Below, piece after piece: positions 5,126-38,857 of a stretch of 64,000 nucleotides of DNA (position 1 is its first letter; every line of letters begins with the position of its first letter). This DNA is from Minisyncoccota bacterium. Its GTDB lineage: Bacteria > Patescibacteriota > Minisyncoccia > Phycocordibacterales > Phycocordibacteraceae. Location: NCBI GenBank assembly GCA_017991635.1, contig JAGOQE010000001.1, forward strand, positions 131,965-195,964, read 5' to 3'. The translations under genes were made by a program, and so were the position numbers. The notes beneath the pieces were generated by a model. That model was not told the DNA's origin and searched no databases. It saw nothing but the letters and a program-made list of their open reading frames with translations.

Positions 5126-6661
5126 ATGCCTATGACTACAAAAAAAATCCTTGCCTCACTCGTCTTTGGAGCAATGCTCGTTGTGTCTGCAGGAACTCCA
5201 CAGAAAGCAGAGGCATTTCTTGGATTTGGTGACATCGTACTCGACCCTGCAAACCTAGTTCAGACAATTATCAATGTATATCAAGAAGGGGAGGGTATAT
5301 ACAAAGAGTTTGTCCTCGATCCACTTGCGTGGGTGGTTGGAAAACAGGCCGCACAATCAGTCGTCAAAAGTGTTATTACGTGGGCTGGAAATGGTTTTGA
5401 TGGAGAACCTTCATTCGTCACCGATCTCAATTCAAATATGCTTCGTGTCGGAGACACTGTAGCTGAAGATTTTCTAAAGCAGTACATGGAGAATAATGCT
5501 GTAAATTCCCCATACCGCGACAGTATTGCAAGCTCAATTAGAAGTGATTACTACCGCTCAACTGGACCAGGTGCGTTTTTTAACTCAAACAAATATGACT
5601 TGGACCAATACTCAGAAGATCCTGCAGCTTTCACAAGTGGAGATTTTACGAAGGGTGGATGGACAGCATGGTGGGCTATTAACTCTAACCCTCAAAACAA
5701 TCCGAGAGGAGCGTATATAACGGCGCAAGGTGCCCTTGATTCTTCAGTACAGAACGCTCAAAACAATCGCTCTGAAGAGCTTGATTGGGGAAGTGGCTTT
5801 CTTGCATATCGAGGAAACTGTAACTCGTCAGGCACAGGTGGCACAGCTTCAGCACCTGAAAAGAAGACCTTTGCTGACTTCTACGCAGCACTTGGGGACC
5901 AGTACCCAAATGAAGAAGCTGCACGAAATGCTTTTGAAAACCTTGCTGCATTAGGACCGTCGGATTCTTCTGGTAGTGGCAATGCGGTTTCTCTTTCCGG
6001 AAATTATGACTGTCTCTTGAACAGCACCATTCAAACTCAAGGAGCCACCATTAAGGCAAGTGTCGACAAGGCACTTGGAAGCGGGATTGACCAGCTCGTA
6101 AGTGCTGACGAGTTTAATGAAATTGTCGGTTCGCTCTTTTCTTCTCTCATTAGTAGCGTTATGGATGAGGGTCTTTCAAATGTAAGCAAGCCTTCTTCAA
6201 GTGGTAGAAGTACGCTTGGAGACGCAACTGACCCAGGCCAGCTATCAGGTTCAAGTCTTGGCACTAGTTTTGCTAAAACAATTGATAATCAGAAGAAGCA
6301 AGTTGAAGGATACAAGGAAGACTGGGAAGCAATTAATAAAGCAGCACTTGAAACAAAGGCGGCTTGCGGTAGCAGAAATACTGATGCTGATGCGATTATC
6401 CAACAGTCTACACAAGAAATTGCACGTGCAGTTGAAGCGCTCGCCGAGCTCGATAAACTTAAAGCCAAGACGAGCTCAACGTCATCATCTGATCTTACCA
6501 GTCTGGCAGGAGAGTTTGATGCTCTTCAGAAATCAGGAACACTTCCTTCTCCAGAGGAAATCGCTGAAGCACGCCTAAACGCAATGGATAATAGTGGTGG
6601 AGATTCTATGGTGTCACAAATGAAAGAAGCGAAAAATTCTTGCCTCGTGAGAGGTTTTTAG
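5126..6661 (+). CDS. Hypothetical secreted protein with C-terminal coiled-coil (T4SS-like operon member)
   Basis: Sec-type signal peptide (MPMTTKKILASLVFGAMLVVSAGTPQKAEA). Ser/Gly/Asn-rich middle. C-terminal heptad-like region. No recognisable catalytic motif. Confidence 0.4.
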   Translation: MPMTTKKILASLVFGAMLVVSAGTPQKAEAFLGFGDIVLDPANLVQTIINVYQEGEGIYKEFVLDPLAWVVGKQAAQSVVKSVITWAGNGFDGEPSFVTDLNSNMLRVGDTVAEDFLKQYMENNAVNSPYRDSIASSIRSDYYRSTGPGAFFNSNKYDLDQYSEDPAAFTSGDFTKGGWTAWWAINSNPQNNPRGAYITAQGALDSSVQNAQNNRSEELDWGSGFLAYRGNCNSSGTGGTASAPEKKTFADFYAALGDQYPNEEAARNAFENLAALGPSDSSGSGNAVSLSGNYDCLLNSTIQTQGATIKASVDKALGSGIDQLVSADEFNEIVGSLFSSLISSVMDEGLSNVSKPSSSGRSTLGDATDPGQLSGSSLGTSFAKTIDNQKKQVEGYKEDWEAINKAALETKAACGSRNTDADAIIQQSTQEIARAVEALAELDKLKAKTSSTSSSDLTSLAGEFDALQKSGTLPSPEEIAEARLNAMDNSGGDSMVSQMKEAKNSCLVRGF

Positions 6662-6664
6662 CGC

Positions 6665-8812
6665 ATGAGTCTATTCTTTAAAAGAGTTTTCAACAGCACT
6701 CAGGGGCAAGCTTCGCTTGTTTCCCGAGTTGCTATACGCAGTGCTTCCTTTGCCCCGACCCTGCTTTTACTCTTTGTTCTTTTTGGTCTAGCAGTTCCTC
6801 ATGAGGTTCATGCTGCTGCGACATGGAATCCTCTGACCTGGCCTGGCGCCATTTTGTCAGGAGTCGCTAAGGAGTTTGCTGAGGGGGCAGGGAAGCTGTT
6901 TGCGTCCTTTTTGTTTGTGCTTGTTCAACTTATGGCCGGACTCCTTTTTGTCGTTGGCATGGGACTTAACTGGGTGGTTTTAGTAACTGTTTTTCAGTTT
7001 TCAACGTACTTTGGAAATTCTTCAGGCATGCTTCTGGCATGGACAACGCTTCGTGACCTCGCAAACATTATTCTTCTTTTTGGTTTTGTATGGATTGGTT
7101 TGCAAACGATACTCAATGTCGGACACCACTTTAGTGTAGGAAAGGCGCTTCCTCGACTTCTTATCTTTGCAATTCTTATCAACTTTAGTCTTTTTATATC
7201 TGAAGCAATTGTTGATGTTGCGAATGTATTCACGGCGGTCATGTATGAACAGGCTGGAAGCATCGACTGCAAGCAGGCAGTTAATCAGGTTGATTGCGTA
7301 AATATAGGTATTTCTGGAAACGTTATTGGCGCAATTGGATTTGGAAGTCTCTTTGAGCCTGGCGCTTTTGACGCATATAAAGAGATCTGGAACAGCAGCA
7401 CTGACCCAGGACAGGCAATCTTGGCAGGGTTCCTCTCTCTAATATTCATGATTGTACTGGTAACTGTTTTTCTTGCGGCCTCCATTATGTTACTTATTCG
7501 TTCCATTGTGCTCATTTTTGTACTAGTGCTTTCGCCTTTAGGTTTTGTTGGGATGGCAGTGCCGCAGTTTGAAGAACAGGCACAAAAGTGGTGGAAGATG
7601 CTTATATCTAACGCTTTCTTTGCTCCAGTACTATTTCTTCTTTTGTTTATTTCACTAAAAATAATGGAGGGCGCTAAGGCTACTTTTGGACAAGGGGTTT
7701 CATTTGCTGCCGCAGTAATGTCACCCGGAGTAAATATGGGTGGAATTTTAATTCTTTTTGGATTAATGATTGGCTTTATTATCTTTTCACTTATTGCCGC
7801 GAAGAGTATGGGCGCGTTCGGAGCTGATTTTGCAACAAACACAGCAGGAAAAATGACTGGAGCAATGACTCTTGGAGCTGGCGGATTTGTGGCGAGGAGA
7901 ACTGTTGGTAGAGCTGCGAATTGGGCCGAACGTAAGGTTCGAGACTCACAATTCTCAGATACAGAGTGGGGTAGAAGAACAGCGAGTGTCCTTAACAAAG
8001 GAGCTACAGCAAGCTTCGATTTACGCGGTTCTAATATGGTCAAATCAGCAGCCAAGGCAGGGAACCTTGATTTTGGTGCCGTAAGCAAGGGCGGTTCTCA
8101 TGGGTATCACGGTATAGAAGAGGCTGGAGTTAAGGTGAGAACCGATTACGCAAAAACTCTAAAAGGAAGGACTGAGACTCAAGAAGAGTTTGAAACTCGC
8201 AAGAACAGCTTGAAGGAAACCGCTGACAAAGCAGAGGAGGCGCTCATTCCCGCTCAGGAGTTTGCCGCTAATGCTGAGCGTGATGTTGAAACAAAGCAGC
8301 AAGAACTTGCTGACCTTAGATCTCAAGTTGCACGAACACCCAATAATCCAGTTCTTCAGAATAAACTTATTCAAGTGGAGCAAGAACTGACTCAAAGACA
8401 AGCTGAGAATGTTAAAGCACAAAAGGGACTTTCTGACGCAACAACCGCTCTCACTGAGGCAAGGAAGGCCGAAACTGAGGCAACAAAAGGAAGGATCACA
8501 GCAAAGCAACAACAGGAAAAGTACGCGGACATGCTTCACGACAAAGCAACAGGGGCTCTTCCTGGTGGTGTCGTTCGCTACCCAGGAGGCAGACCAAGCA
8601 CAGGGAGAGGTGTTGGTGTCACGCTCGGGGAGCATGTTTTCCACAATGCGTCAGAAGCCATTAAAAAGGAGGCTAACAAGAGCGACAATGACCGCCTAAA
8701 GGACACGATTGACGCGCTCGCAAAGAAGACGGAAAAACTCGACACCTCAGTTAAGAGTGCGGGTTCTGGTGGTGGTGATTCACATGGTGGTGGCGGCGGT
8801 GACCATCATTAG
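6665..8812 (+). CDS. VirB6/TrbL-like polytopic inner-membrane protein with long C-terminal coiled-coil and Gly/His-rich tail
   Basis: At least 6 hydrophobic helices in residues 1-400, typical of VirB6/TrbL channel proteins. Located beside VirB3/VirB4 homologues. C-terminal 250 aa Lys/Glu/Gln-rich coiled-coil ending GSGGGDSHGGGGGDHH. Confidence 0.45.
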   Translation: MSLFFKRVFNSTQGQASLVSRVAIRSASFAPTLLLLFVLFGLAVPHEVHAAATWNPLTWPGAILSGVAKEFAEGAGKLFASFLFVLVQLMAGLLFVVGMGLNWVVLVTVFQFSTYFGNSSGMLLAWTTLRDLANIILLFGFVWIGLQTILNVGHHFSVGKALPRLLIFAILINFSLFISEAIVDVANVFTAVMYEQAGSIDCKQAVNQVDCVNIGISGNVIGAIGFGSLFEPGAFDAYKEIWNSSTDPGQAILAGFLSLIFMIVLVTVFLAASIMLLIRSIVLIFVLVLSPLGFVGMAVPQFEEQAQKWWKMLISNAFFAPVLFLLLFISLKIMEGAKATFGQGVSFAAAVMSPGVNMGGILILFGLMIGFIIFSLIAAKSMGAFGADFATNTAGKMTGAMTLGAGGFVARRTVGRAANWAERKVRDSQFSDTEWGRRTASVLNKGATASFDLRGSNMVKSAAKAGNLDFGAVSKGGSHGYHGIEEAGVKVRTDYAKTLKGRTETQEEFETRKNSLKETADKAEEALIPAQEFAANAERDVETKQQELADLRSQVARTPNNPVLQNKLIQVEQELTQRQAENVKAQKGLSDATTALTEARKAETEATKGRITAKQQQEKYADMLHDKATGALPGGVVRYPGGRPSTGRGVGVTLGEHVFHNASEAIKKEANKSDNDRLKDTIDALAKKTEKLDTSVKSAGSGGGDSHGGGGGDHH

Positions 8813-8827
8813 TAGTACACTGTATTC

Positions 8828-9643
8828 ATGGATGATGAGACTGAGCAAATGCCCTTAGAGGATGCTGTTGAAGTGCTCATGGAGAGACTTCCTGTCCCTG
8901 TACAGAACTTTCTCACAAGCGAGCGCAGGAATCAGGTTATATATGAAATAAGCCAGAAGTACCGTCTACACACAGACCAGGCAGGGGACTTTGAGCGCGC
9001 TGCGCTCTTTATGCTCCTTGGTATTTATTCTCCTGAAGAGTTCCTTACAAATCTTAAGGCAGCGGGCATTCCAGAGCAGGTGGCGCAAGGGCTTACCCGC
9101 GAAGTTAACGAGAAAATATTTATACCTCTTCGCGAAGAAGAGCGCGCACTCACCGATACGGAGTCCGCACCAAAACTCAAAGAAGAGACAACTCCTGCCT
9201 ACACAGCACCGGTGATCGCGACACCACCACAACCAGATAGGGCAACCACTTTAATGCCAGAACAGACGCCAGCATGGAGCCCTCAGCAATATCCAACATC
9301 TCCTCAGTTTCAACAGCCGTTCTACGGTGGACAGGCACAGACATACTGGATTCCTGTCTCCATTTCACCTATTCAACACCCCATGAGTCCATTTCCTCAG
9401 TATGGCGGGACTCCTTATACGCAAGCACCGCAGGCACCCGCTCAAGAGATGCAAGCACCACCTCCTCTATTTCCCGCAACACCTCAACCAGAGGCAATGC
9501 GATATACTGAACCTAGCCAACCTCAAACATTAGAACCTATGCAAGACGCTTCCTCTCGCCCCGAGTCTCCAGTCACCCAAACACCTCCGCCACCCATCAA
9601 GAGGGAATACAACGGCGACCCATATAGAGAAGTTCCGTTATAG
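8828..9643 (+). CDS. Hypothetical cytoplasmic protein with Pro/Gln-rich low-complexity C-terminal half
   Basis: No TM segment. C-terminal PQ-rich segment. In T4SS-like operon. Confidence 0.35.
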   Translation: MDDETEQMPLEDAVEVLMERLPVPVQNFLTSERRNQVIYEISQKYRLHTDQAGDFERAALFMLLGIYSPEEFLTNLKAAGIPEQVAQGLTREVNEKIFIPLREEERALTDTESAPKLKEETTPAYTAPVIATPPQPDRATTLMPEQTPAWSPQQYPTSPQFQQPFYGGQAQTYWIPVSISPIQHPMSPFPQYGGTPYTQAPQAPAQEMQAPPPLFPATPQPEAMRYTEPSQPQTLEPMQDASSRPESPVTQTPPPPIKREYNGDPYREVPL

Positions 9644-9698
9644 CTTTTAAACGTTTTTTGTACTCGTTTATTGTTGTTCGTTGCTATACTACTAAGTA

Positions 9699-10106
9699 AT
9701 GGAGTATCAAGTTCCTCAATTTATAGAAGTTGAAGACAAGGTCTTTGGACCGCTTTCAATTAAACAGTTCATTTACTTGGCTGGAGGAGCAGGCCTTTGT
9801 GTTGTGCTCGCGCTGTACGTACCTAAGGTTGGAATTATCTTAGCCATACCTGTCGGCTTATTTGCTGCAGGTCTAGCGTTTTACAGAATCAATAACAAGC
9901 CTTTGGTTGATATACTTGAGTCTGCATTTACATTCTTTCTAGGCGGAAGACTCTATTTGTGGAAAAAAGAAGACCATATAGCAAGTCCTGAGAAACCTAA
10001 GGCTGTTGCACCTACTCCAACTGAACGTGAGCAAATGGGTCTTACGCGAGGCAAATTACATGACTTGGCGTGGTCACTCGACATAAAGGACACTTCTTCG
10101 AAATAA
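9699..10106 (+). CDS. PrgI-family (VirB3-like) small membrane protein
   Basis: N-terminus MEYQVPQFIEVEDKVFGPLSIKQFIYLAGGAG matches characteristic PrgI family start (xxYxVPxxIxxEDKIxGxLTxRQFxYL). Two TM segments. Sits immediately upstream of VirB4 as in Gram-positive T4SS loci. Confidence 0.6.
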   Translation: MEYQVPQFIEVEDKVFGPLSIKQFIYLAGGAGLCVVLALYVPKVGIILAIPVGLFAAGLAFYRINNKPLVDILESAFTFFLGGRLYLWKKEDHIASPEKPKAVAPTPTEREQMGLTRGKLHDLAWSLDIKDTSSK

Positions 10107-10109
10107 CAT

Positions 10110-10751
10110 ATGGCGATACCTAAGGCGACACAATCGTTTGTACCAGTAAAAGAAATCCGAAACGGGGTAATTATCCTTAAAGATGGTGGCTATCGTGGAA
10201 TACTTATGTGTTCTTCGGTAAATTTCTCACTTAAGTCAGAGGATGAACAGCGGGGAATCATTGGAGGATTTCAGAATTTTCTCAATACACTTGATTTCTC
10301 TGTAGAGATTGTCATCCAGTCACGAAAGATGGATATTCGACCCTACCTAGCGCTCCTTGAAGAGCGTATGCAGGCACAGACAAGCGAGCTGATGCGAATT
10401 CAGTTGCGTGAATACATTGGCTTCATTAAAAGTTTTGTTGAGGGAACGGATATTATGACAAAGACATTCTATGTCGTGGTGCCGTTTGCACCAGCTCCTG
10501 TAAGCACTGTTTCCGGCGCCCTACCGTTCCTTCAGAAAAAAGACACGACCATCGCTGAAGCAGGGGAGTCCGATGAGGACAAATTGTTTACAGAGTTTCG
10601 AATTCAACTTGAGCAACGCATGGCCCTTGTTGGTTCGTCACTCGCTTCTTCTGGAGTGCGGGCGGTGCCTCTTGGAACTGAAGAGATTATTGAACTTTTG
10701 TATCGTTCATTTAATCCAGGAGAGAACGAGAACCCTATCCGACTTTCATAA
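10110..10751 (+). CDS. VirB4/TraE-family ATPase, N-terminal domain (separated from the ATPase domain by an in-frame TAA)
   Basis: VPVKEIRNGVIILKDGGYRGILMCSSVNFSLKSEDEQ ... FLNTLDFSVEIVIQSRKMDIRPYL resembles the conserved N-terminus of Gram-positive VirB4 homologues. Same reading frame as 10758-12572. Confidence 0.6.
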   Translation: MAIPKATQSFVPVKEIRNGVIILKDGGYRGILMCSSVNFSLKSEDEQRGIIGGFQNFLNTLDFSVEIVIQSRKMDIRPYLALLEERMQAQTSELMRIQLREYIGFIKSFVEGTDIMTKTFYVVVPFAPAPVSTVSGALPFLQKKDTTIAEAGESDEDKLFTEFRIQLEQRMALVGSSLASSGVRAVPLGTEEIIELLYRSFNPGENENPIRLS

Positions 10752-10757
10752 TTTACT

Positions 10758-12572
10758 ATGGCACTACTCGACTTTTTCGGAAAAAAGAATGACGCTCCTG
10801 AGGTGACTCCTGTCTTACCTAAAGACATTTACGCAGCTGGTGAACTTGATCTTGCAGATACTATTGCACCTGCTGCACTCAAGGTTAATTCAAAAGACAT
10901 TGAAATTGGTGAGCGCTTTGCTCGTACGCTCTACACAATTTCATATCCTCGCTTCCTTGTTGATAGTTGGTTCTCTCCGATTATTAATTTGGATAAACAG
11001 TTTGATATCGGCCTTTTCATCCACCCGCTTGAAACAGGGGCGGCTCTTAAAGGTTTTCAGAAAAAGGTTGCTGAAGTACAAAGCCAAATTGCTGAGCGAG
11101 AAGAGAAGGGGTTTGTCCGTGACCCAATGCTTGATACGGCATACCGTGACCTTGAGGACCTCCGTGATCAATTACAACAGGCGCAAGAACATCTTTTTGA
11201 AGTTGGACTATACACGACTATTTATGGAAACACTAAGGACGAACTCGATAAGGCTGAATCAAAGATACGTGGCATTCTTGATGCAAAGCTTGTGTATTCA
11301 AAACCAGCGCTTTACCGACAGGAGCAAGGTTTTCGCTCTACACTACCGCTCGCCCTTGATGAATTGAATGACCACACTAAACTAAATTCTTCTCCTCTCT
11401 CTTCACTCTTTCCGTTTGTCTCTTTCGACCTCACCAGTGATAGAGGGATTCTGTATGGCATCAATCGTCACAACGCCTCACTCATTCTTTTTGATAGATT
11501 CTCTCTAGAAAACTACAACTCTGTAGTATTCGCAAAATCAGGCTCCGGAAAATCATATGCGATTAAACTCGAGATTCTACGCTCATTGATGTTTGATACT
11601 GACGTCATTGTTATTGACCCTGAACGGGAGTACGAATACCTTGCTCAAGCAACTGGGGGTAGACTCTTTAACATCTCACTTTCTTCTGAGCACCACATTA
11701 ACCCCTTTGATTTGCCAGTAGTCAAAGATGACGAGGACCCTTCAGACATTCTTCGAAATAACATCATTACACTTGTTGGTCTCTTCCGTATCATGCTCGG
11801 AGGGCTTACGCCTGAAGAGGACGCAATTGTTGATCGCGCAATTACCGAGACTTACGCCCTCAAGGACATCACTGGCGACCGGGACTTTACCGGAATGGAA
11901 CCGCCTCTTCTTTCTGATTTTGAGAGTGTACTTTCTGGTATGGAGGGAAGTGAGTCGCTCGTACAACGTCTTTCCAAGTACACGCACGGCACCTGGTCAG
12001 GATTCATCAATCAGCCAACCAATATCGATATTAATAAACAGTTCATTGTGTTTTCAGTGCGAGACATGGAGGACGAGCTTAAACCTGTTGCTATGTACAT
12101 CGTCACGCATTACATATGGAATGCGGTTCGAAAAGAGCTCCGTAAGCGTCTTCTTATTATTGATGAGGCGTGGTGGATGATGAAGTCTGAAGATACTGCT
12201 TCATTCCTCTACTCTCTCGCAAAGCGTGGACGTAAATACTACTTAGGCGTCTCCACCATTACGCAGGACGTGGAAGATTTCTTGCGCTCTCCGTATGGCC
12301 GTCCAATTCTCACAAACTCATCAATGCAACTGCTTCTTAAACAGTCGCCAACAACTATCGACACACTGCAACAAACGTTCAACCTCACTGATGAGGAAAA
12401 ATATCTCTTGCTTGAGTCTGGAGTAGGGGAGGGGCTCTTTTTCGCGGGCCTAAAGCACGTAGCAATTAAAATTGTGGCCTCCTACACTGAGGATCAAATT
12501 ATTACCTCTGACCCTTCTCAACTTCTTGCCATTCAACAAGAGCGCTTGCGCCTCAATAGCGAAGGCGCGTAG
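10758..12572 (+). CDS. VirB4/TraC/TrbE-family T4SS ATPase, central + C-terminal ATPase domain
   Basis: Walker A VVFAKSGSGKSYAIK, Walker B LLIIDEAWWMM. Upstream VirB4 middle-domain similarity (FARTLYTISYPRF...). Combined with 10110-10751 gives an ~817 aa VirB4. Confidence 0.85.
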   Translation: MALLDFFGKKNDAPEVTPVLPKDIYAAGELDLADTIAPAALKVNSKDIEIGERFARTLYTISYPRFLVDSWFSPIINLDKQFDIGLFIHPLETGAALKGFQKKVAEVQSQIAEREEKGFVRDPMLDTAYRDLEDLRDQLQQAQEHLFEVGLYTTIYGNTKDELDKAESKIRGILDAKLVYSKPALYRQEQGFRSTLPLALDELNDHTKLNSSPLSSLFPFVSFDLTSDRGILYGINRHNASLILFDRFSLENYNSVVFAKSGSGKSYAIKLEILRSLMFDTDVIVIDPEREYEYLAQATGGRLFNISLSSEHHINPFDLPVVKDDEDPSDILRNNIITLVGLFRIMLGGLTPEEDAIVDRAITETYALKDITGDRDFTGMEPPLLSDFESVLSGMEGSESLVQRLSKYTHGTWSGFINQPTNIDINKQFIVFSVRDMEDELKPVAMYIVTHYIWNAVRKELRKRLLIIDEAWWMMKSEDTASFLYSLAKRGRKYYLGVSTITQDVEDFLRSPYGRPILTNSSMQLLLKQSPTTIDTLQQTFNLTDEEKYLLLESGVGEGLFFAGLKHVAIKIVASYTEDQIITSDPSQLLAIQQERLRLNSEGA

Positions 12573-12595
12573 AAGAATGAGGTACTATAGTACCA

Positions 12596-13261
12596 ATGCC
12601 TCCTCAAGAGACACCTGAAAAGAAACCACGTATAGGGTTATTGACTGCACTTGCTCTTGTGCTTGTAGCTTTAATTTTTGATGGCGGACAATTTCTTGTT
12701 GGTCTAATACCATTTCTTGATATTGTGCTTCTTCCTATTGTGGGAATAACGGCATCAATCGTTTTTTGGATTTGGTTTATGTTGATTGACCCAAGCCTTA
12801 TGTCTGGAGCAAAGGCATTTAAAAATCAGCTTGCTATGGCAGGGATGTCGATTGCGACAGTTATCCCTTTCCTTGATATGTTGCCTGAAATTACAGCGGG
12901 CGTGGTTGCGGTTATTCTCATATCTCGTGCCGAGGACATGGGTCTTTCGGTCAGTGACCTGATTAAAACCGGTTTAAATATCGCAAAGAATCCAGTACTT
13001 GGTACTGCTGAGGCAGTGGTGAGCGCCAAATCTAAAGAAAGAGAGAAAAAGGGTGGTGGAGGTGTTGGAAGTTTTATGGCAAACAGAGTAGGAGGAGACC
13101 GAAAGGCCGTTGGGAAACCTCTACCACAAGATGGAGTAAGAAGAGCCAAAGGATATGCCGGTCCAACTATTAATAAGGAGCCCACAACCTCAAAACAGAC
13201 TCCTTTGGTAAGTGGTGGAAAACCCTCACCGCTAGTATCAGAGGCTAATCGCTGGCGATAA
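12596..13261 (+). CDS. Hypothetical polytopic membrane protein with Gly-rich disordered C-terminal tail (T4SS-like operon)
   Basis: 3-4 hydrophobic helices in first 120 aa, then KEREKKGGGGVGS tail. Confidence 0.35.
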   Translation: MPPQETPEKKPRIGLLTALALVLVALIFDGGQFLVGLIPFLDIVLLPIVGITASIVFWIWFMLIDPSLMSGAKAFKNQLAMAGMSIATVIPFLDMLPEITAGVVAVILISRAEDMGLSVSDLIKTGLNIAKNPVLGTAEAVVSAKSKEREKKGGGGVGSFMANRVGGDRKAVGKPLPQDGVRRAKGYAGPTINKEPTTSKQTPLVSGGKPSPLVSEANRWR

Positions 13262-13287
13262 GTTAACCTCTGGATTTCAATAAAAAT

Positions 13288-14298
13288 GTGGCGAGAAGGG
13301 CGTATACTAAATGCATGATACGAGGTTTTTATACGTTGTTTTTTGTCGCATTGTTTTTCGTTCCGCTGACTACTTTTGCGCAGGGCTATAACCCTCAGGA
13401 TTCTCTTTCGGTAAGTATTGTTCCGGAACACCCAAAACCTTATGAGACTGTTTCTGTTACCCCAAGGAGTTCACTCCTTGACCTTATATCAAGTACGATA
13501 ACGATTTCAGCAAACGGGCAAAAGGTTGAGCAGGGGAGCGGTTTGGTTACTGGGTATGTTCGAGCAGGCGCTCCAGGAGAAAAAACCACCATTACTGTTT
13601 CAGTTGTATCGGGAGGAACTACGTACACAAAAACGGTAGTAATTCGGCCAGCAAGTGTGGCGCTCGTCGTAGAACCAACATCAACAACACATCCCTTTTA
13701 CCTTGGTGGAAGCCTGGTGGCATCTGAAGGGCCGGTTCGTCTTGTTGCTATTCCCGATTTCCAAAGTACGCCTGGTGTTTCCATAAAGAACGAGCAGCTC
13801 ACCTATACGTGGAGATTAGGCCAACAGGTCTTACAAACTGTTTCTGGAATTGGAAAGAGTTCAGTCACAGCAACAGCTCCAGTTCGTTACAGAGATGCAA
13901 CACTGTCAGTTACGGTGACAAATTCAGAAAACACCATGGTGGCCTATGCTTCAACAAGCATCGCTCCTACCGATCCATTAATAAAGGTGTACGCGAATGA
14001 TCCTCTCCTAGGCCCTCTTTTTGATCATGCACTTCCAAACTCACTCACCATGGAAACGACTGAGCAAACCTTCAGAATGGTTCCGTATTTCTTTGCCACG
14101 ACACCAAGCATGTCATGGAACGTGAACGGGAGTACAGGAGGAGTAGAGAGAGATGTCACAGTGCGAGCAACAGGGAATGGAAAAGGGTCTGCGGTTATAG
14201 AAGCTTCTGCCAAGCTCGCCGAAACATTCCAAAACGCGAAGACTTCATTGAGCGTATCATTTGGTGAACAGTCTGGTCTTGGTATATTTGGACTATAG
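13288..14298 (+). CDS. Hypothetical secreted beta-rich protein (T4SS-like operon)
   Basis: Signal peptide ...FFVPLTTFAQG. Thr/Ser/Val-rich repeats suggest Ig-like beta-sandwich domains. Confidence 0.35.
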   Translation: MARRAYTKCMIRGFYTLFFVALFFVPLTTFAQGYNPQDSLSVSIVPEHPKPYETVSVTPRSSLLDLISSTITISANGQKVEQGSGLVTGYVRAGAPGEKTTITVSVVSGGTTYTKTVVIRPASVALVVEPTSTTHPFYLGGSLVASEGPVRLVAIPDFQSTPGVSIKNEQLTYTWRLGQQVLQTVSGIGKSSVTATAPVRYRDATLSVTVTNSENTMVAYASTSIAPTDPLIKVYANDPLLGPLFDHALPNSLTMETTEQTFRMVPYFFATTPSMSWNVNGSTGGVERDVTVRATGNGKGSAVIEASAKLAETFQNAKTSLSVSFGEQSGLGIFGL

Positions 14299-14300
14299 CT

Positions 14301-15218
14301 ATGAAACGAACACTTTTCTTTATTGGAAGTCTCGCACTACTAACTCCGGCACTGGTCTTTGCACAAGACACCACCTTTGTTCCATTAACTAACCTTCCTG
14401 GAATTAGTGGTGTTTCCGGGTCTCCCGACCTGACCTCAATCCTTAACAATATCTACCGCATATGTATTGGTGCTGCTGCGGTTATCGCAGTCTTTCAAAT
14501 TATGCGTGCGGGTGTGCTGTTCATGTTCAACAAGGGCAGTATTTCTGAGAATCAAGAAGCTAAGCAGTTAGTACAGATGTCGATTTTAGGGCTTATTTTG
14601 GTACTTTCGCCAGTAATCATTTTTAGTATCATTAATCCTAAGATTCTTGAGTTGAATTTTGGTGTTGATCAACTTAAGACAAACTTTACTGGTGGTGTTT
14701 CTGGAACAGGGACAGCGCCAACCGCTCCTGGCACAGGCACTAATGATGGGGCAGTGGTTCCACCCCCTTCAATCATTCCAGCGACAGGAGCCACAAACAC
14801 AGGCTGCCCTGTAATTGCAGACAATCAAATTTTGACAGAGCCTGACCTGTACCAGAAACAGCAATGCTGCGCGAATCAGACAAATGACATGGTTACCTGT
14901 AGTGCGCAAGCTCAAACTCGCCAAGGTAATACGGTGGACTATTGCGGGTGTGCGATAAACGAAAAGACAATTACGTTCCATGATGCGTACGAGAATACAA
15001 ACGGCGCACGTAATAGAATTGGTTCTGTCCCCCCTGAGAAGGCAACTGTAGATGCATTTGTAGGGAAGTGTACTCAATATGGCGGGAGGATGGATTACAA
15101 GGATGTGTGGGAAGGATTTGGAGACAAATTTAGGGTCTGCCCCTCAACAATTGTTGTACCTGAAGGAAAAAATTATGACTGCGTTCTTGTAGAGGCAACC
15201 TGTAAGGATGACGACTAA
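14301..15218 (+). CDS. Candidate T4SS pilin-like (VirB2/TrbC-like topology) protein fused to a Cys-rich C-terminal domain
   Basis: Sec signal (ALVFA|QD), then two hydrophobic helices separated by a short polar loop (IYRICIGAAAVIAVFQIMRAGVLFMF / LVQMSILGLILVLSPVIIFSIINP), as in VirB2/TrbC pilins. Followed by ~170 aa with about 10 Cys. Confidence 0.3.
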   Translation: MKRTLFFIGSLALLTPALVFAQDTTFVPLTNLPGISGVSGSPDLTSILNNIYRICIGAAAVIAVFQIMRAGVLFMFNKGSISENQEAKQLVQMSILGLILVLSPVIIFSIINPKILELNFGVDQLKTNFTGGVSGTGTAPTAPGTGTNDGAVVPPPSIIPATGATNTGCPVIADNQILTEPDLYQKQQCCANQTNDMVTCSAQAQTRQGNTVDYCGCAINEKTITFHDAYENTNGARNRIGSVPPEKATVDAFVGKCTQYGGRMDYKDVWEGFGDKFRVCPSTIVVPEGKNYDCVLVEATCKDDD

Positions 15219-15221
15219 CCT

Positions 15222-16433
15222 ATGCAAAGAATATTCCTTATCGTAGCAAGTATTATTTTCGTCGCCGGTATTGGTATTGGTGTGTACTTCTTTTTTTTCC
15301 AAGACAAAGCAACACTCTCTGTTGATACAGGAAATACGTTCGGAACTTCTGGAGACACCACCACAACGACTGAAGAAGACGATACTGGACCTCTATTGGT
15401 TGGAGCTGGTGAAGAGGTGTTACCTCAACTTTTCAAGATTACTGATAAACCTATATCATCTGGCATTGTTGCTCTTTCCATCCCTCCAACGCTCACCGCA
15501 TCAAGTACCGGCGTAAATCGAGGAGATGTTGAGGTTCGCTACGTTGACAGAACAAGTGGAAATATCTATGCATATAGAGCGTACGAGCGAACTTTAACGC
15601 GCACCTCAAATAGGACCGTTCCAGGAATACAGGAGGTATCATGGCTTCCAAATGGCGAGACCGCTCTTGTTCGCTTTCTTTCAACAGATAGTTCCACGAA
15701 TACCGAAGCAGTCGAAACGTATGTACTACCTGCAACAGGGGAGGGTGGCTTCTTCCTTGAGCGAGGGCTTTCGCAAGTGCTTGGCGTTGGTTCTTCAACA
15801 CTCTTTACTCTCAAGACAAGCTCATTTGGCTCAACAGGCACTGTAGCGAATAGTAAAGGCGAAGTGGTGAGAACTGCGTTTACTTCAACACTCTCTTCAC
15901 TTCGTGTTTTTGCTACCTCAAAGGGGTATACAGCACAGACGAAAGCGTCGTCATCGCTTGATGGGTACGCGTTTTCTATTAGCACAACAGGAGCGCTCTC
16001 AAGAATACTTGGCCCACATAAAGGCTTGTCCATCCTACCGAACGCTGATGGTACGCTTGTGCTGTATTCATACCAGTCGGAAGGGTCCATGCGTATGGCG
16101 TTACTCAACCGAAATTCAGGCGATGTGACCGCCCTTCCGCTTTCTACACTTGCTGAGAAGTGCACATGGTCTGGAGACGAGAAATCAATCTATTGCGGAG
16201 TTCCTCAAAGCGCGAAAGGGAATCTTCCCGACGAATGGTATCAAGGTGCGCGTTTCTTTACCGATAGGATTTGGAAAATTGACCTCTCTGATCGTGTCGC
16301 GACACTACTCCTAGACCCTTCAAAAGCAGAGGGTGTGGCTATTGATATGGTAAGTGTGTCTATTGATAAGTCTTCTGACTTCCTCTTCTTCAAAAACAAG
16401 CAGGACGGCTCCCTCTGGGCGTACGATATTTAA
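15222..16433 (+). CDS. Hypothetical membrane-anchored beta-rich (possibly beta-propeller/TolB-like) protein; last gene of T4SS-like operon
   Basis: N-terminal TM (IFLIVASIIFVAGIGIGVYFFFF). Ser/Thr-rich beta strands. Motifs such as SLWAYDI, WSGDEKSIYCG. Confidence 0.3.
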   Translation: MQRIFLIVASIIFVAGIGIGVYFFFFQDKATLSVDTGNTFGTSGDTTTTTEEDDTGPLLVGAGEEVLPQLFKITDKPISSGIVALSIPPTLTASSTGVNRGDVEVRYVDRTSGNIYAYRAYERTLTRTSNRTVPGIQEVSWLPNGETALVRFLSTDSSTNTEAVETYVLPATGEGGFFLERGLSQVLGVGSSTLFTLKTSSFGSTGTVANSKGEVVRTAFTSTLSSLRVFATSKGYTAQTKASSSLDGYAFSISTTGALSRILGPHKGLSILPNADGTLVLYSYQSEGSMRMALLNRNSGDVTALPLSTLAEKCTWSGDEKSIYCGVPQSAKGNLPDEWYQGARFFTDRIWKIDLSDRVATLLLDPSKAEGVAIDMVSVSIDKSSDFLFFKNKQDGSLWAYDI

Positions 16434-38361: not shown

Positions 38362-38433
38362 GCCCCCATAGCTTAATGGATAAAGCAGGAGACTTCTAAG
38401 CTCTTGATCTTGGTTCGATTCCAGGTGGGGGCA
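38362..38433 (+). tRNA. tRNA-Arg (anticodon TCT)
   Basis: Hand fold: acceptor GCCCCCA/TGGGGGC, D-arm GCTTAATGGATAAAGC, anticodon loop CTTCTAA, T-arm CTTGGTTCGATTCCAGG. Confidence 0.7.
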
Positions 38434-38690
38434 CAGCGTGAACGAAGTGAATAGCGTGCTCCCACAGAACTGTGCCTTCGCACAGTTCGTCTGGAATCGA
38501 AAGCCGGAACATGTCTGAGTCCTCGAGGACAGTGAGGCGGGGTCGCGTACCTTGGTCTTCTGCGAATACTTGGAGCAGAATACCTAGCGATACGTGACCG
38601 ATGCGAGAGCGCGACCACAATTTCTTGAGCGCAGCGATTAGAAATTTGAAGTACCCTTGTGGTGAAGCGAACTTCCAGGTGGGGGCACAA
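38434..38690 (+). repeat. tRNA-linked structured repeat, copy B (downstream of tRNA-Arg-TCT), flanked by 17 nt direct repeat of the tRNA 3' end
   Basis: CTTC-loop hairpin 38464-38492, then core GGAATCGAAAGCCGGAACATGTCTGAGTCCTCGAGGACAGTGAGGCGGGGTCGCGTACCTTGGTCTTCTGCGAATACTTGGAGCAGAATACCTAGCGATACGTGACCGATGCG (38493-38605). TTCCAGGTGGGGGCACA occurs at 38419-38435 (in tRNA) and 38673-38689. Confidence 0.75.
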
Positions 38691-38725
38691 ATACAAAAAG
38701 AGCGCCTTGGCGCTCTTTTTGTGTA
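38691..38725. terminator. Bidirectional intrinsic terminator between repeat copy B and tRNA-Val
   Basis: AAAAAGAGCGCCTTGGCGCTCTTTTT perfect palindrome with A/T runs on both sides. Confidence 0.7.
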
Positions 38726-38801
38726 TGTGGTGGGCGATAGAGGACTCGAACCTCTGACCATCCCGGTGTAAACGGGGTGCTCTACCAACTGAGCTAATCG
38801 C
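38726..38801 (-). tRNA. tRNA-Val (anticodon TAC), CCA encoded
   Basis: Hand fold: acceptor GGGCGAT/ATCGCCC, D-arm GCTCAGTTGGTAGAGC, anticodon loop TTTACAC, T-arm AGAGGTTCGAGTCCTCT, 3' ACCA. Confidence 0.7.
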
Positions 38802-38857
38802 CCTACAGGTGATACCTTAGCGCATTTCATATTTTTTTCCAAGCAACCTGAAGGGCT

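Follow-up and report, generated by a model that had tools for sequence, protein, structure and literature searches.

In Patescibacteria, type IV secretion systems (T4SSs) mostly occur without a relaxase and are thought to have been repurposed, and their most abundant component is a homologue of TrsD, a protein that is remotely homologous to the N-terminus of VirB4 and that occurs in MPF-FATA systems of the pGO1 subclass (Quinonero-Coronel et al. 2025, PMC12102498). Homologues of TrsD number 2,272, of which 1,664 are associated with virB4, and the one of Candidatus Southlakia epibionticum is listed as essential; no function is assigned to TrsD in that paper, which also reports VirB2-like pilins for the T4SSs of Patescibacteria and states that VirB3 anchors VirB4 to the membrane (PMC12102498). 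Wang et al. 2023 (PMC10633639) describe the essential T4SS of Ca. S. epibionticum as similar to conjugative systems of Gram-positive bacteria, with pilins in addition. Guglielmini et al. 2014 (PMC4027160) do not name TrsD in their main text, and no papers were found in a literature search for 'split VirB4'. The subject here is a locus of this type in a Minisyncoccota bacterium (assembly GCA_017991635.1), where two adjacent open reading frames (ORFs), ORF A and ORF B, lie on a stretch of 64,000 nucleotides (nt) of contig JAGOQE010000001.1 (positions 131,965 to 195,964 of the forward strand), the whole of which is called the window in the following. It is very likely that ORF A and ORF B are real genes that are translated separately and that together encode a genuine two-subunit VirB4 of a chromosomal, monoderm-type (MPF-FATA-like) T4SS in a Patescibacterium (Paceibacteria/'Pacebacteria').

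Like in the T4SSs of other Patescibacteria (PMC12102498), among them that of Ca. S. epibionticum (SEML1_0006-0019, PMC10633639), a TrsD-like gene lies directly upstream of a virB4 gene for about 600 amino acids (aa), and like there (PMC12102498), the cluster is chromosomal and includes genes for a PrgI/VirB3-like protein and, probably, for a VirB6-like protein and a VirB2-like pilin, the pilin match in the window being consistent with the published pilins. Homologues of the two ORFs carry the labels Paceibacterota, Parcubacteria or Pacebacteria. Nothing of substance differs from the published systems, so that the window holds another species' copy, and the pair is an instance of a published architecture. 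Reading frame relation, spacer lengths, the exact breakpoint in the N-terminal domain and the rare re-fused forms are not discussed in PMC12102498 and are added here. A reading from the sequence alone (the sequence-only reading) had listed a genuinely split, two-subunit VirB4 among its explanations and had called it unusual; the split itself holds in all 79 related species that carry both genes, but it is the rule in Patescibacteria, occurs also on Firmicute plasmids, and is already published, so that the word 'unusual' has to be given up. The discovery value is correspondingly small, this being the standard architecture of T4SSs in Patescibacteria and in one subclass of Gram-positive conjugation systems. 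The T4SS concerned is essential for epibiotic growth.

The gene order is the same in the pairs TrsD-TrsE of the Staphylococcus plasmids pGO1 and pSK41 and TraD-TraE of pIP501 (TrsD/TraD family, NCBIfam NF041427), where the VirB4-type ATPase gene of a monoderm T4SS is directly preceded by a gene for a small free-standing protein that is remotely homologous to the VirB4 N-terminus. These systems serve plasmid conjugation and comprise a relaxase and a coupling protein, and the relation of ORF A to them is remote in sequence. A tblastn search of plasmid sequences with ORF A as the query gave matches on 51 Firmicute plasmids, with identities of 22-30% and often a coverage above 90%. Three of them show the order PrgI, A-like gene and ATPase gene, and their split point also matches that of the window: Geobacillus pGspE55-1 (a 318-aa A-like product and a DUF87 ATPase, the genes overlapping by 14 nt), Clostridium botulinum pCBG (a 257-aa 'TraC family protein' and an ATP-binding protein, overlap of 11 nt) and Clostridium perfringens pJFP838A (a gap of 130 nt between both genes). 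These Firmicute modules differ from the window in being carried on plasmids, in the greater length of the A-like proteins (257-318 aa), and in an overlap of 11-14 nt or a gap of 130 nt where the window has a 6-nt spacer. Single-chain VirB4 proteins, such as those of the CD1110 type (NF045971), of the Mycoplasma integrative and conjugative element (NF045975), and TrwK of R388 (PDB 7O41/8RTB), have the same domain order and a similar fold, but they consist of one polypeptide, whereas the window encodes two.

The VirB4 gene pair of the window

The sequence-only reading had placed the two ORFs in one frame, with a TAA, six nt and an ATG between them, and re-reading the sequence yields the same coordinates and the same layout (Table 1). 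Taken together, both ORFs form a read-through of 821 codons that is broken by this single stop. ORF B matches the NCBIfam model NF045971 (conju_CD1110) with 377.9 bits at a cutoff of 325, its residues 29-569 corresponding to model positions 184-733, and it also matches the Pfam families P-loop_TraG (88.6 bits, cutoff 25.8), AAA_10 and DUF87. Residues 229-584 match the C-terminal domain of VirB4 in PDB 4AG5 (E 1.4e-43). With a score above the family cutoff and with both Walker motifs in place, ORF B has the characters of a CD1110-type VirB4, and it also lies in a T4SS cluster with VirB3-like and VirB6-like genes; the VirB6-like protein and the pilin score below their cutoffs, but they are encoded in the same tight operon. 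An ATPase activity of ORF B and a need for it in secretion are predicted; in Ca. S. epibionticum, T4SS genes are reported to be essential (PMC12102498, PMC10633639).

For ORF A, an NCBIfam profile search aligns residues 8-124 with positions 2-119 of the same fused CD1110-type model, and the homology to the VirB4 N-terminus is real, if remote. As ORF A covers positions 2-119 and ORF B positions 184-733, both are collinear with a single-chain VirB4, which bears out the earlier proposal that A and B together make up one VirB4. The proposal had also put the N-domain signature into the first ORF and the Walker motifs into the second; the former stands as a remote match and the latter can be read directly, but the implied split between N-domain and ATPase domain does not stand, the break falling inside the N-domain (see below). 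PF26593.2, a family named TraC-like, is the precomputed Pfam assignment of protein P0001, which is identical to ORF A at 212 of 213 positions, and each of the 120 best ORF A homologues has the same assignment; a search of the local Pfam copy, which apparently lacks the PF26593 model, gave no match for ORF A. The AlphaFold2 model of ORF A, computed from a 90-sequence alignment, is confident, with a predicted local distance difference test (pLDDT) of 90.2 and a predicted template modelling score (pTM) of 0.80. In a Foldseek search of this model against the PDB, the top 14 matches are all chains of R388 TrwK/VirB4, with a probability of 1.00 and a TMq of at most 0.58, and the matches below them have E values above 0.1. 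The identity of ORF A to TrwK is 18%, and the likeness is detectable only at the level of the fold. By its modelled fold, ORF A thus matches the initial part of the VirB4 N-terminal domain.

A resemblance of this kind could also be shown by an independent accessory protein, such as a factor similar to secretion chaperones, that looks like the VirB4 N-terminus and is no VirB4 subunit. This is very unlikely: VirB4 itself ranks at the top in both fold searches with the ORF A model, ORF A is collinear with the fused VirB4 models, natural fusions exist at exactly this joint, and ORF A adjoins the ATPase gene in 79 of 79 species. Homology to the VirB4 N-terminus is found together with the typical position of a small free-standing protein encoded directly upstream of the VirB4 ATPase gene, and this position is the same in the window, in these 79 species, in near strains, and on the Firmicute plasmids.

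Table 1. Positions of the VirB4 gene pair, its sequence elements and neighbouring T4SS genes in the window
Feature	Position	Strand	Remarks
ORF A (TrsD-like/'TraC-like', free-standing)	10110..10751	+	213 aa; corresponds to the first part of the VirB4 N-domain
TAA, true end of ORF A	10749..10751	+	stop in 79/79 species; identical in 5 independent assemblies
Spacer TTTACT	10752..10757	+	6 nt between ORF A and ORF B, without Shine-Dalgarno motif
ORF B (VirB4-type T4SS ATPase)	10758..12572	+	604 aa, ATG start; second part of the N-domain and C-terminal P-loop ATPase domain
Walker A, AKSGSGKS	11532..11555	+	ORF B residues 259-266; read from sequence; aligned to the 4AG5 P-loop
Walker B, LLIIDE	12150..12167	+	ORF B residues 465-470; read from sequence; aligned to 4AG5
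PrgI-family (VirB3-like) small membrane protein	9699..10106	+	PF12666, E 1e-8, 36 bits (cutoff 27); 3-nt spacer to ORF A, same frame
VirB6-like polytopic membrane protein, probable	6665..8812	+	TrbL/VirB6 E 0.006, 16.8 bits, below the cutoff of 25.9; weak
VirB2-like pilin, probable	14301..15218	+	T4SS_pilin E 7.8e-5, 23.1 bits (cutoff 26.6); TrbC E 0.0034; weak

The junction in near strains and related species

In metagenome assemblies it is a general possibility that a false stop is created by a sequencing or assembly error, and this is all that speaks for such an error here. Near strains were found in five independent Logan assemblies that come from five different SRA sequencing runs, and in all of them the ORF A product has 213 aa, of which 212 are identical to those of the window. 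The 71 nt around the junction are identical in all five, and the DNA of these assemblies is 94.3-98.1% identical to the window and thus 2-6% different at other positions. Furthermore, the protein P0391 from a metagenome-assembled genome (MAG) at NCBI is identical to ORF B over 604 aa. The same junction DNA in independent assemblies from different runs refutes an error, whose probability is vanishingly small.

Between these strains, codon differences in ORF A are 10-11 synonymous versus one non-synonymous, and in ORF B 66 synonymous versus one non-synonymous, so that both ORFs are under strong purifying selection. On a wider scale, loci from 80 different GTDB species were fetched, 79 of which contain both genes, with ORF A identities of 64-77%. 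In all 79, ORF A ends in a stop codon (TAA in 64, TAG in 10, TGA in 5), and ORF B starts with an ATG that aligns with residue 1 of ORF B in the window, the start MALLDF being conserved. Each of the 120 best ORF A homologues is a free-standing protein from Patescibacteria, with a length of 203-231 aa and an identity of 67-88%, and among the 120 best homologues of ORF B all lengths lie within 588-617 aa.

Two ORFs in one frame with only a stop and six nt between them would also result if a recent nonsense mutation had broken a fused VirB4, leaving a pseudogene that is perhaps rescued by reinitiation at the nearby ATG, and fused homologues that could have served as the starting point do exist (P0206, see below, and the CD1110 family). 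In that case one would look for relatives without the interruption and for relaxed selection, but the interruption is present in 79 of 79 species at the same gene boundary, with the genes out of frame in 37 of them, the start of ORF B is conserved, the ratios of synonymous to non-synonymous differences are 10-11:1 and 66:1, and none of the 240 best homologues of the two ORFs is fused. Conservation, variable frame relation and purifying selection on both ORFs thus refute a recent nonsense mutation, which is hardly credible any more. The sequence-only reading had itself named a consistent split with a conserved start context in orthologues as the mark of a real split, and this is what the 79 species show. 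For annotation this means that in these genomes, neighbouring ORFs that share a frame and have a single stop between them should neither be flagged as a pseudogene nor merged.

The relative frame of A and B is 0 in 42 of the 79 species, +1 in 18 and +2 in 19, and in the 37 species in which both genes are out of frame, a read-through that joins them is impossible. The spacer measures 1-3 nt in 60 of the 79 species, a length of 3 nt being the commonest (34 of 79), and is far longer in a few, with a maximum of 142 nt. In a neighbour-joining tree built from the 69 complete pairs, the frame state changes at least 22 times, in comparison to 28 +/- 1.8 changes with shuffled states. The frame relation is thus essentially unconstrained, and because the frame states carry a phylogenetic signal (22 versus 28), the most plausible source of the mild excess of in-frame junctions is a 3-nt spacer inherited from an ancestor. 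Selection for in-frame junctions was considered as well and rejected, phylogenetic inertia explaining the excess. The split of VirB4 is ancient, conserved, under purifying selection, and independent of the reading frame.

In the window itself, 15 of the 46 pairs of neighbouring genes on the same strand have spacers from -10 to +10 nt, and five of these 15 are in frame; within the T4SS operon, five of nine junctions are in frame, including that from the PrgI gene to ORF A (TAA CAT ATG). The shared frame of A and B is therefore no more than chance would give. The stops of 57 gene proxies in the window are TAG (28), TAA (24) and TGA (5), from which it follows that the standard code is in use, and the earlier statement that a recoded genetic code is unlikely is borne out. 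An alternative code is ruled out by the use of all three stops together with a coding density of 88% under table 11.

The longer spacers of 55-142 nt occur at L038:4619-4760, L045:4634-4735, L049:4628-4719 and L017:4643-4697. These inserts start with a similar T(A)TGAGTATG / TATGAAG motif and form long hairpins (-33 kcal/mol over 102 nt in L045), and could represent insertions of small repeat elements or hairpins with a regulatory role. A typical Paceibacteria-type A/B pair with 67% identity to ORF A is present at one locus, L050 (JBLNCF010000007.1), whose label is that of a Bacillota MAG, and many loci with the title 'uncultured Candidatus Saccharibacteria' group with Paceibacterota sequences; such Bacillota and Saccharibacteria labels are probably labelling or binning artefacts in public records.

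Position of the break and fused relatives

Relatives of ORF A were searched exhaustively among 1.84 billion representatives of clusters at 50% identity, which gave 2,548 relatives at E <= 0.001. Among the best 150 of these 2,548, 98 have 180-260 aa, 35 are longer solely through low-complexity tails that are rich in Pro, Gln and Thr, 16 have less than 180 aa and are probably fragments, and exactly one is a true fusion (P0206, 797 aa), so that 149 are unfused. In P0206, the A-like part comprises residues 7-212 and is followed by a short linker and by the B-like part from residue 225, which is aligned from residue 27 of ORF B. A query that spans the junction found only about five further fused fragments with a query cover of at least 67%; as most of what this query matched are gene fragments, it shows that fused forms exist, but gives no reliable frequency for them. 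Natural fused forms are rare.

The Pfam family TraC_F_IV, which describes the N-terminal domain of F-type TraC/VirB4, spans the junction of P0206, where residues 169-394 match profile positions 133-371, and a free-standing homologue from Clostridium matches positions 41-179 of the same profile. As the profile runs across the junction in the one protein and ends close to it in the other, the break falls within the VirB4/TraC N-terminal domain, near position 180 of 375 in the TraC_F_IV profile, and not at the boundary between N-domain and ATPase domain. With the split inside the N-domain, some 230 aa of that domain remain on ORF B in front of its ATPase domain.

The AlphaFold2 model of P0206 has two confident N-terminal modules, between which the joint (residues 218-227) has a pLDDT below 50, and the model aligns to full-length TrwK over 837 columns with E 2.6e-17, significant scores being obtained for VirB4 structures only. 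In this model, the breakpoint corresponds to a linker of low confidence in the fused relative, which is probably flexible.

If the break corresponds to a flexible linker, a product that is made across it could fold, and it has to be asked whether the stop is a programmed recoding site whose partial readthrough yields a fused VirB4 of about 819 aa beside or instead of the separate products. The over-representation of in-frame junctions (42 of 79, with about 26 expected) and the 3-nt spacer as the commonest one fit with this, but no fused product can be required, because the genes are out of frame in 37 of 79 species and the frame relation has switched frequently. Each of the three stop codons is used at this position, with TAA, the least leaky one, dominating (64 of 79), the ATG start of B is aligned throughout, in the Firmicute versions the two genes overlap in different frames, the ancestral spacer accounts for the in-frame excess, and the same in-frame pattern exists between unrelated neighbouring genes of the window. 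Programmed readthrough is thus highly improbable. A weaker variant, for which the chance is likewise slim, is that in the in-frame lineages (42 of 79) low-level readthrough might yield a minor fused VirB4 beside the separate subunits; if so, the motor would be of mixed stoichiometry, and the rare, fully fused forms, P0206 for example, would represent the state in which this route became fixed.

The fused gene of P0206 is located at L081:544-2937 (GCA_964615945.1, CAZTUR010000004.1) in another Patescibacterium, where a PrgI gene precedes it and where it adjoins rnpA, yidC, dnaA and dnaN, in agreement with published T4SS clusters, which are often near the replication origin. The low-complexity tails, rich in Pro, Gln, Thr and Ala, comprise 60-230 residues in the 35 representatives mentioned (P0152, P0154, P0161, P0165, P0178, P0188, P0224 and P0249 among them) and are mostly C-terminal, in which case the stop follows after the tail, and sometimes N-terminal. 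The TrsD-like protein hence gains disordered extensions in some lineages.

Assembly, translation and the surrounding operon

With two separately translated genes as the very likely reading, the polypeptides of ORF A and ORF B would assemble non-covalently into a functional VirB4, and ORF A may form the membrane-proximal part that docks on the PrgI/VirB3-like protein encoded just upstream. ORF B may be translated by coupling to ORF A, either by termination-reinitiation or by another initiation that is independent of a Shine-Dalgarno (SD) motif, as the spacer is 1-6 nt long in most species and has no such motif; an SD-like 4-mer upstream of ORF B was found in 0 of 68 relatives. Such a coupling would keep both subunits in matched amounts. 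The breakpoint in a linker of the N-domain, the free frame, the SD-less spacers, mostly of 1-3 nt, and the rare re-fusions could also be of help in the design of constructs and in structural work.

Several points weigh against this reading of the pair. The match of ORF A to the NCBIfam TrsD/TraD model NF041427 (E 0.0024) reaches 17.7 bits, far under the curated cutoff of 200 bits, and neither ORF A nor the profile of its 90-sequence family matched VirB4 when compared with PDB sequences, the profile having no match to any solved structure at the sequence level, and the homology to TrsD and TrwK is therefore remote or limited to the fold. The ATPase half of the P0206 model is poor, with pLDDT mostly below 60, because the alignment is shallow and offers little diversity over the ATPase domain. 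The models are of single chains, and a physical association of the A and B products is putative; it is the spacing that hints at translational coupling, and the missing SD motif adds little to this, because SD motifs are rare in the genome (in the window, an SD-like 4-mer precedes 12 of 58 gene proxies). Where the spacer between A and B measures 33-142 nt, as it does in a few relatives, a tight coupling is unlikely.

The operon from 5126 to 16433 is tightly packed, five of its nine junctions having spacers of at most 6 nt. Upstream of the A-like gene, a PrgI gene is found in the near strains, in the fused relative and on the Firmicute plasmids, and the VirB6-like gene has kept its operon position in the near strains. 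Five genes of the operon with products of 221-511 aa (5126-6661, 8828-9643, 12596-13261, 13288-14298 and 15222-16433) have no Pfam or NCBIfam match at E <= 0.01, and presumably include VirB8-like, VirB1-like or further pilin components. The operon is packed with spacers of 2-6 nt and is almost free of SD motifs, and four junctions besides that of the VirB4 pair (6661/6665, 10106/10110, 14298/14301 and 15218/15222) show the same pattern of 'one stop, 3 nt, ATG, same frame'. Elsewhere in the window, a mechanically called ORF of 148 aa on the reverse strand (38396-38842) overlaps two tRNA genes, at 38362-38433 on the forward and 38731-38803 on the reverse strand, and it is almost certainly not a gene.

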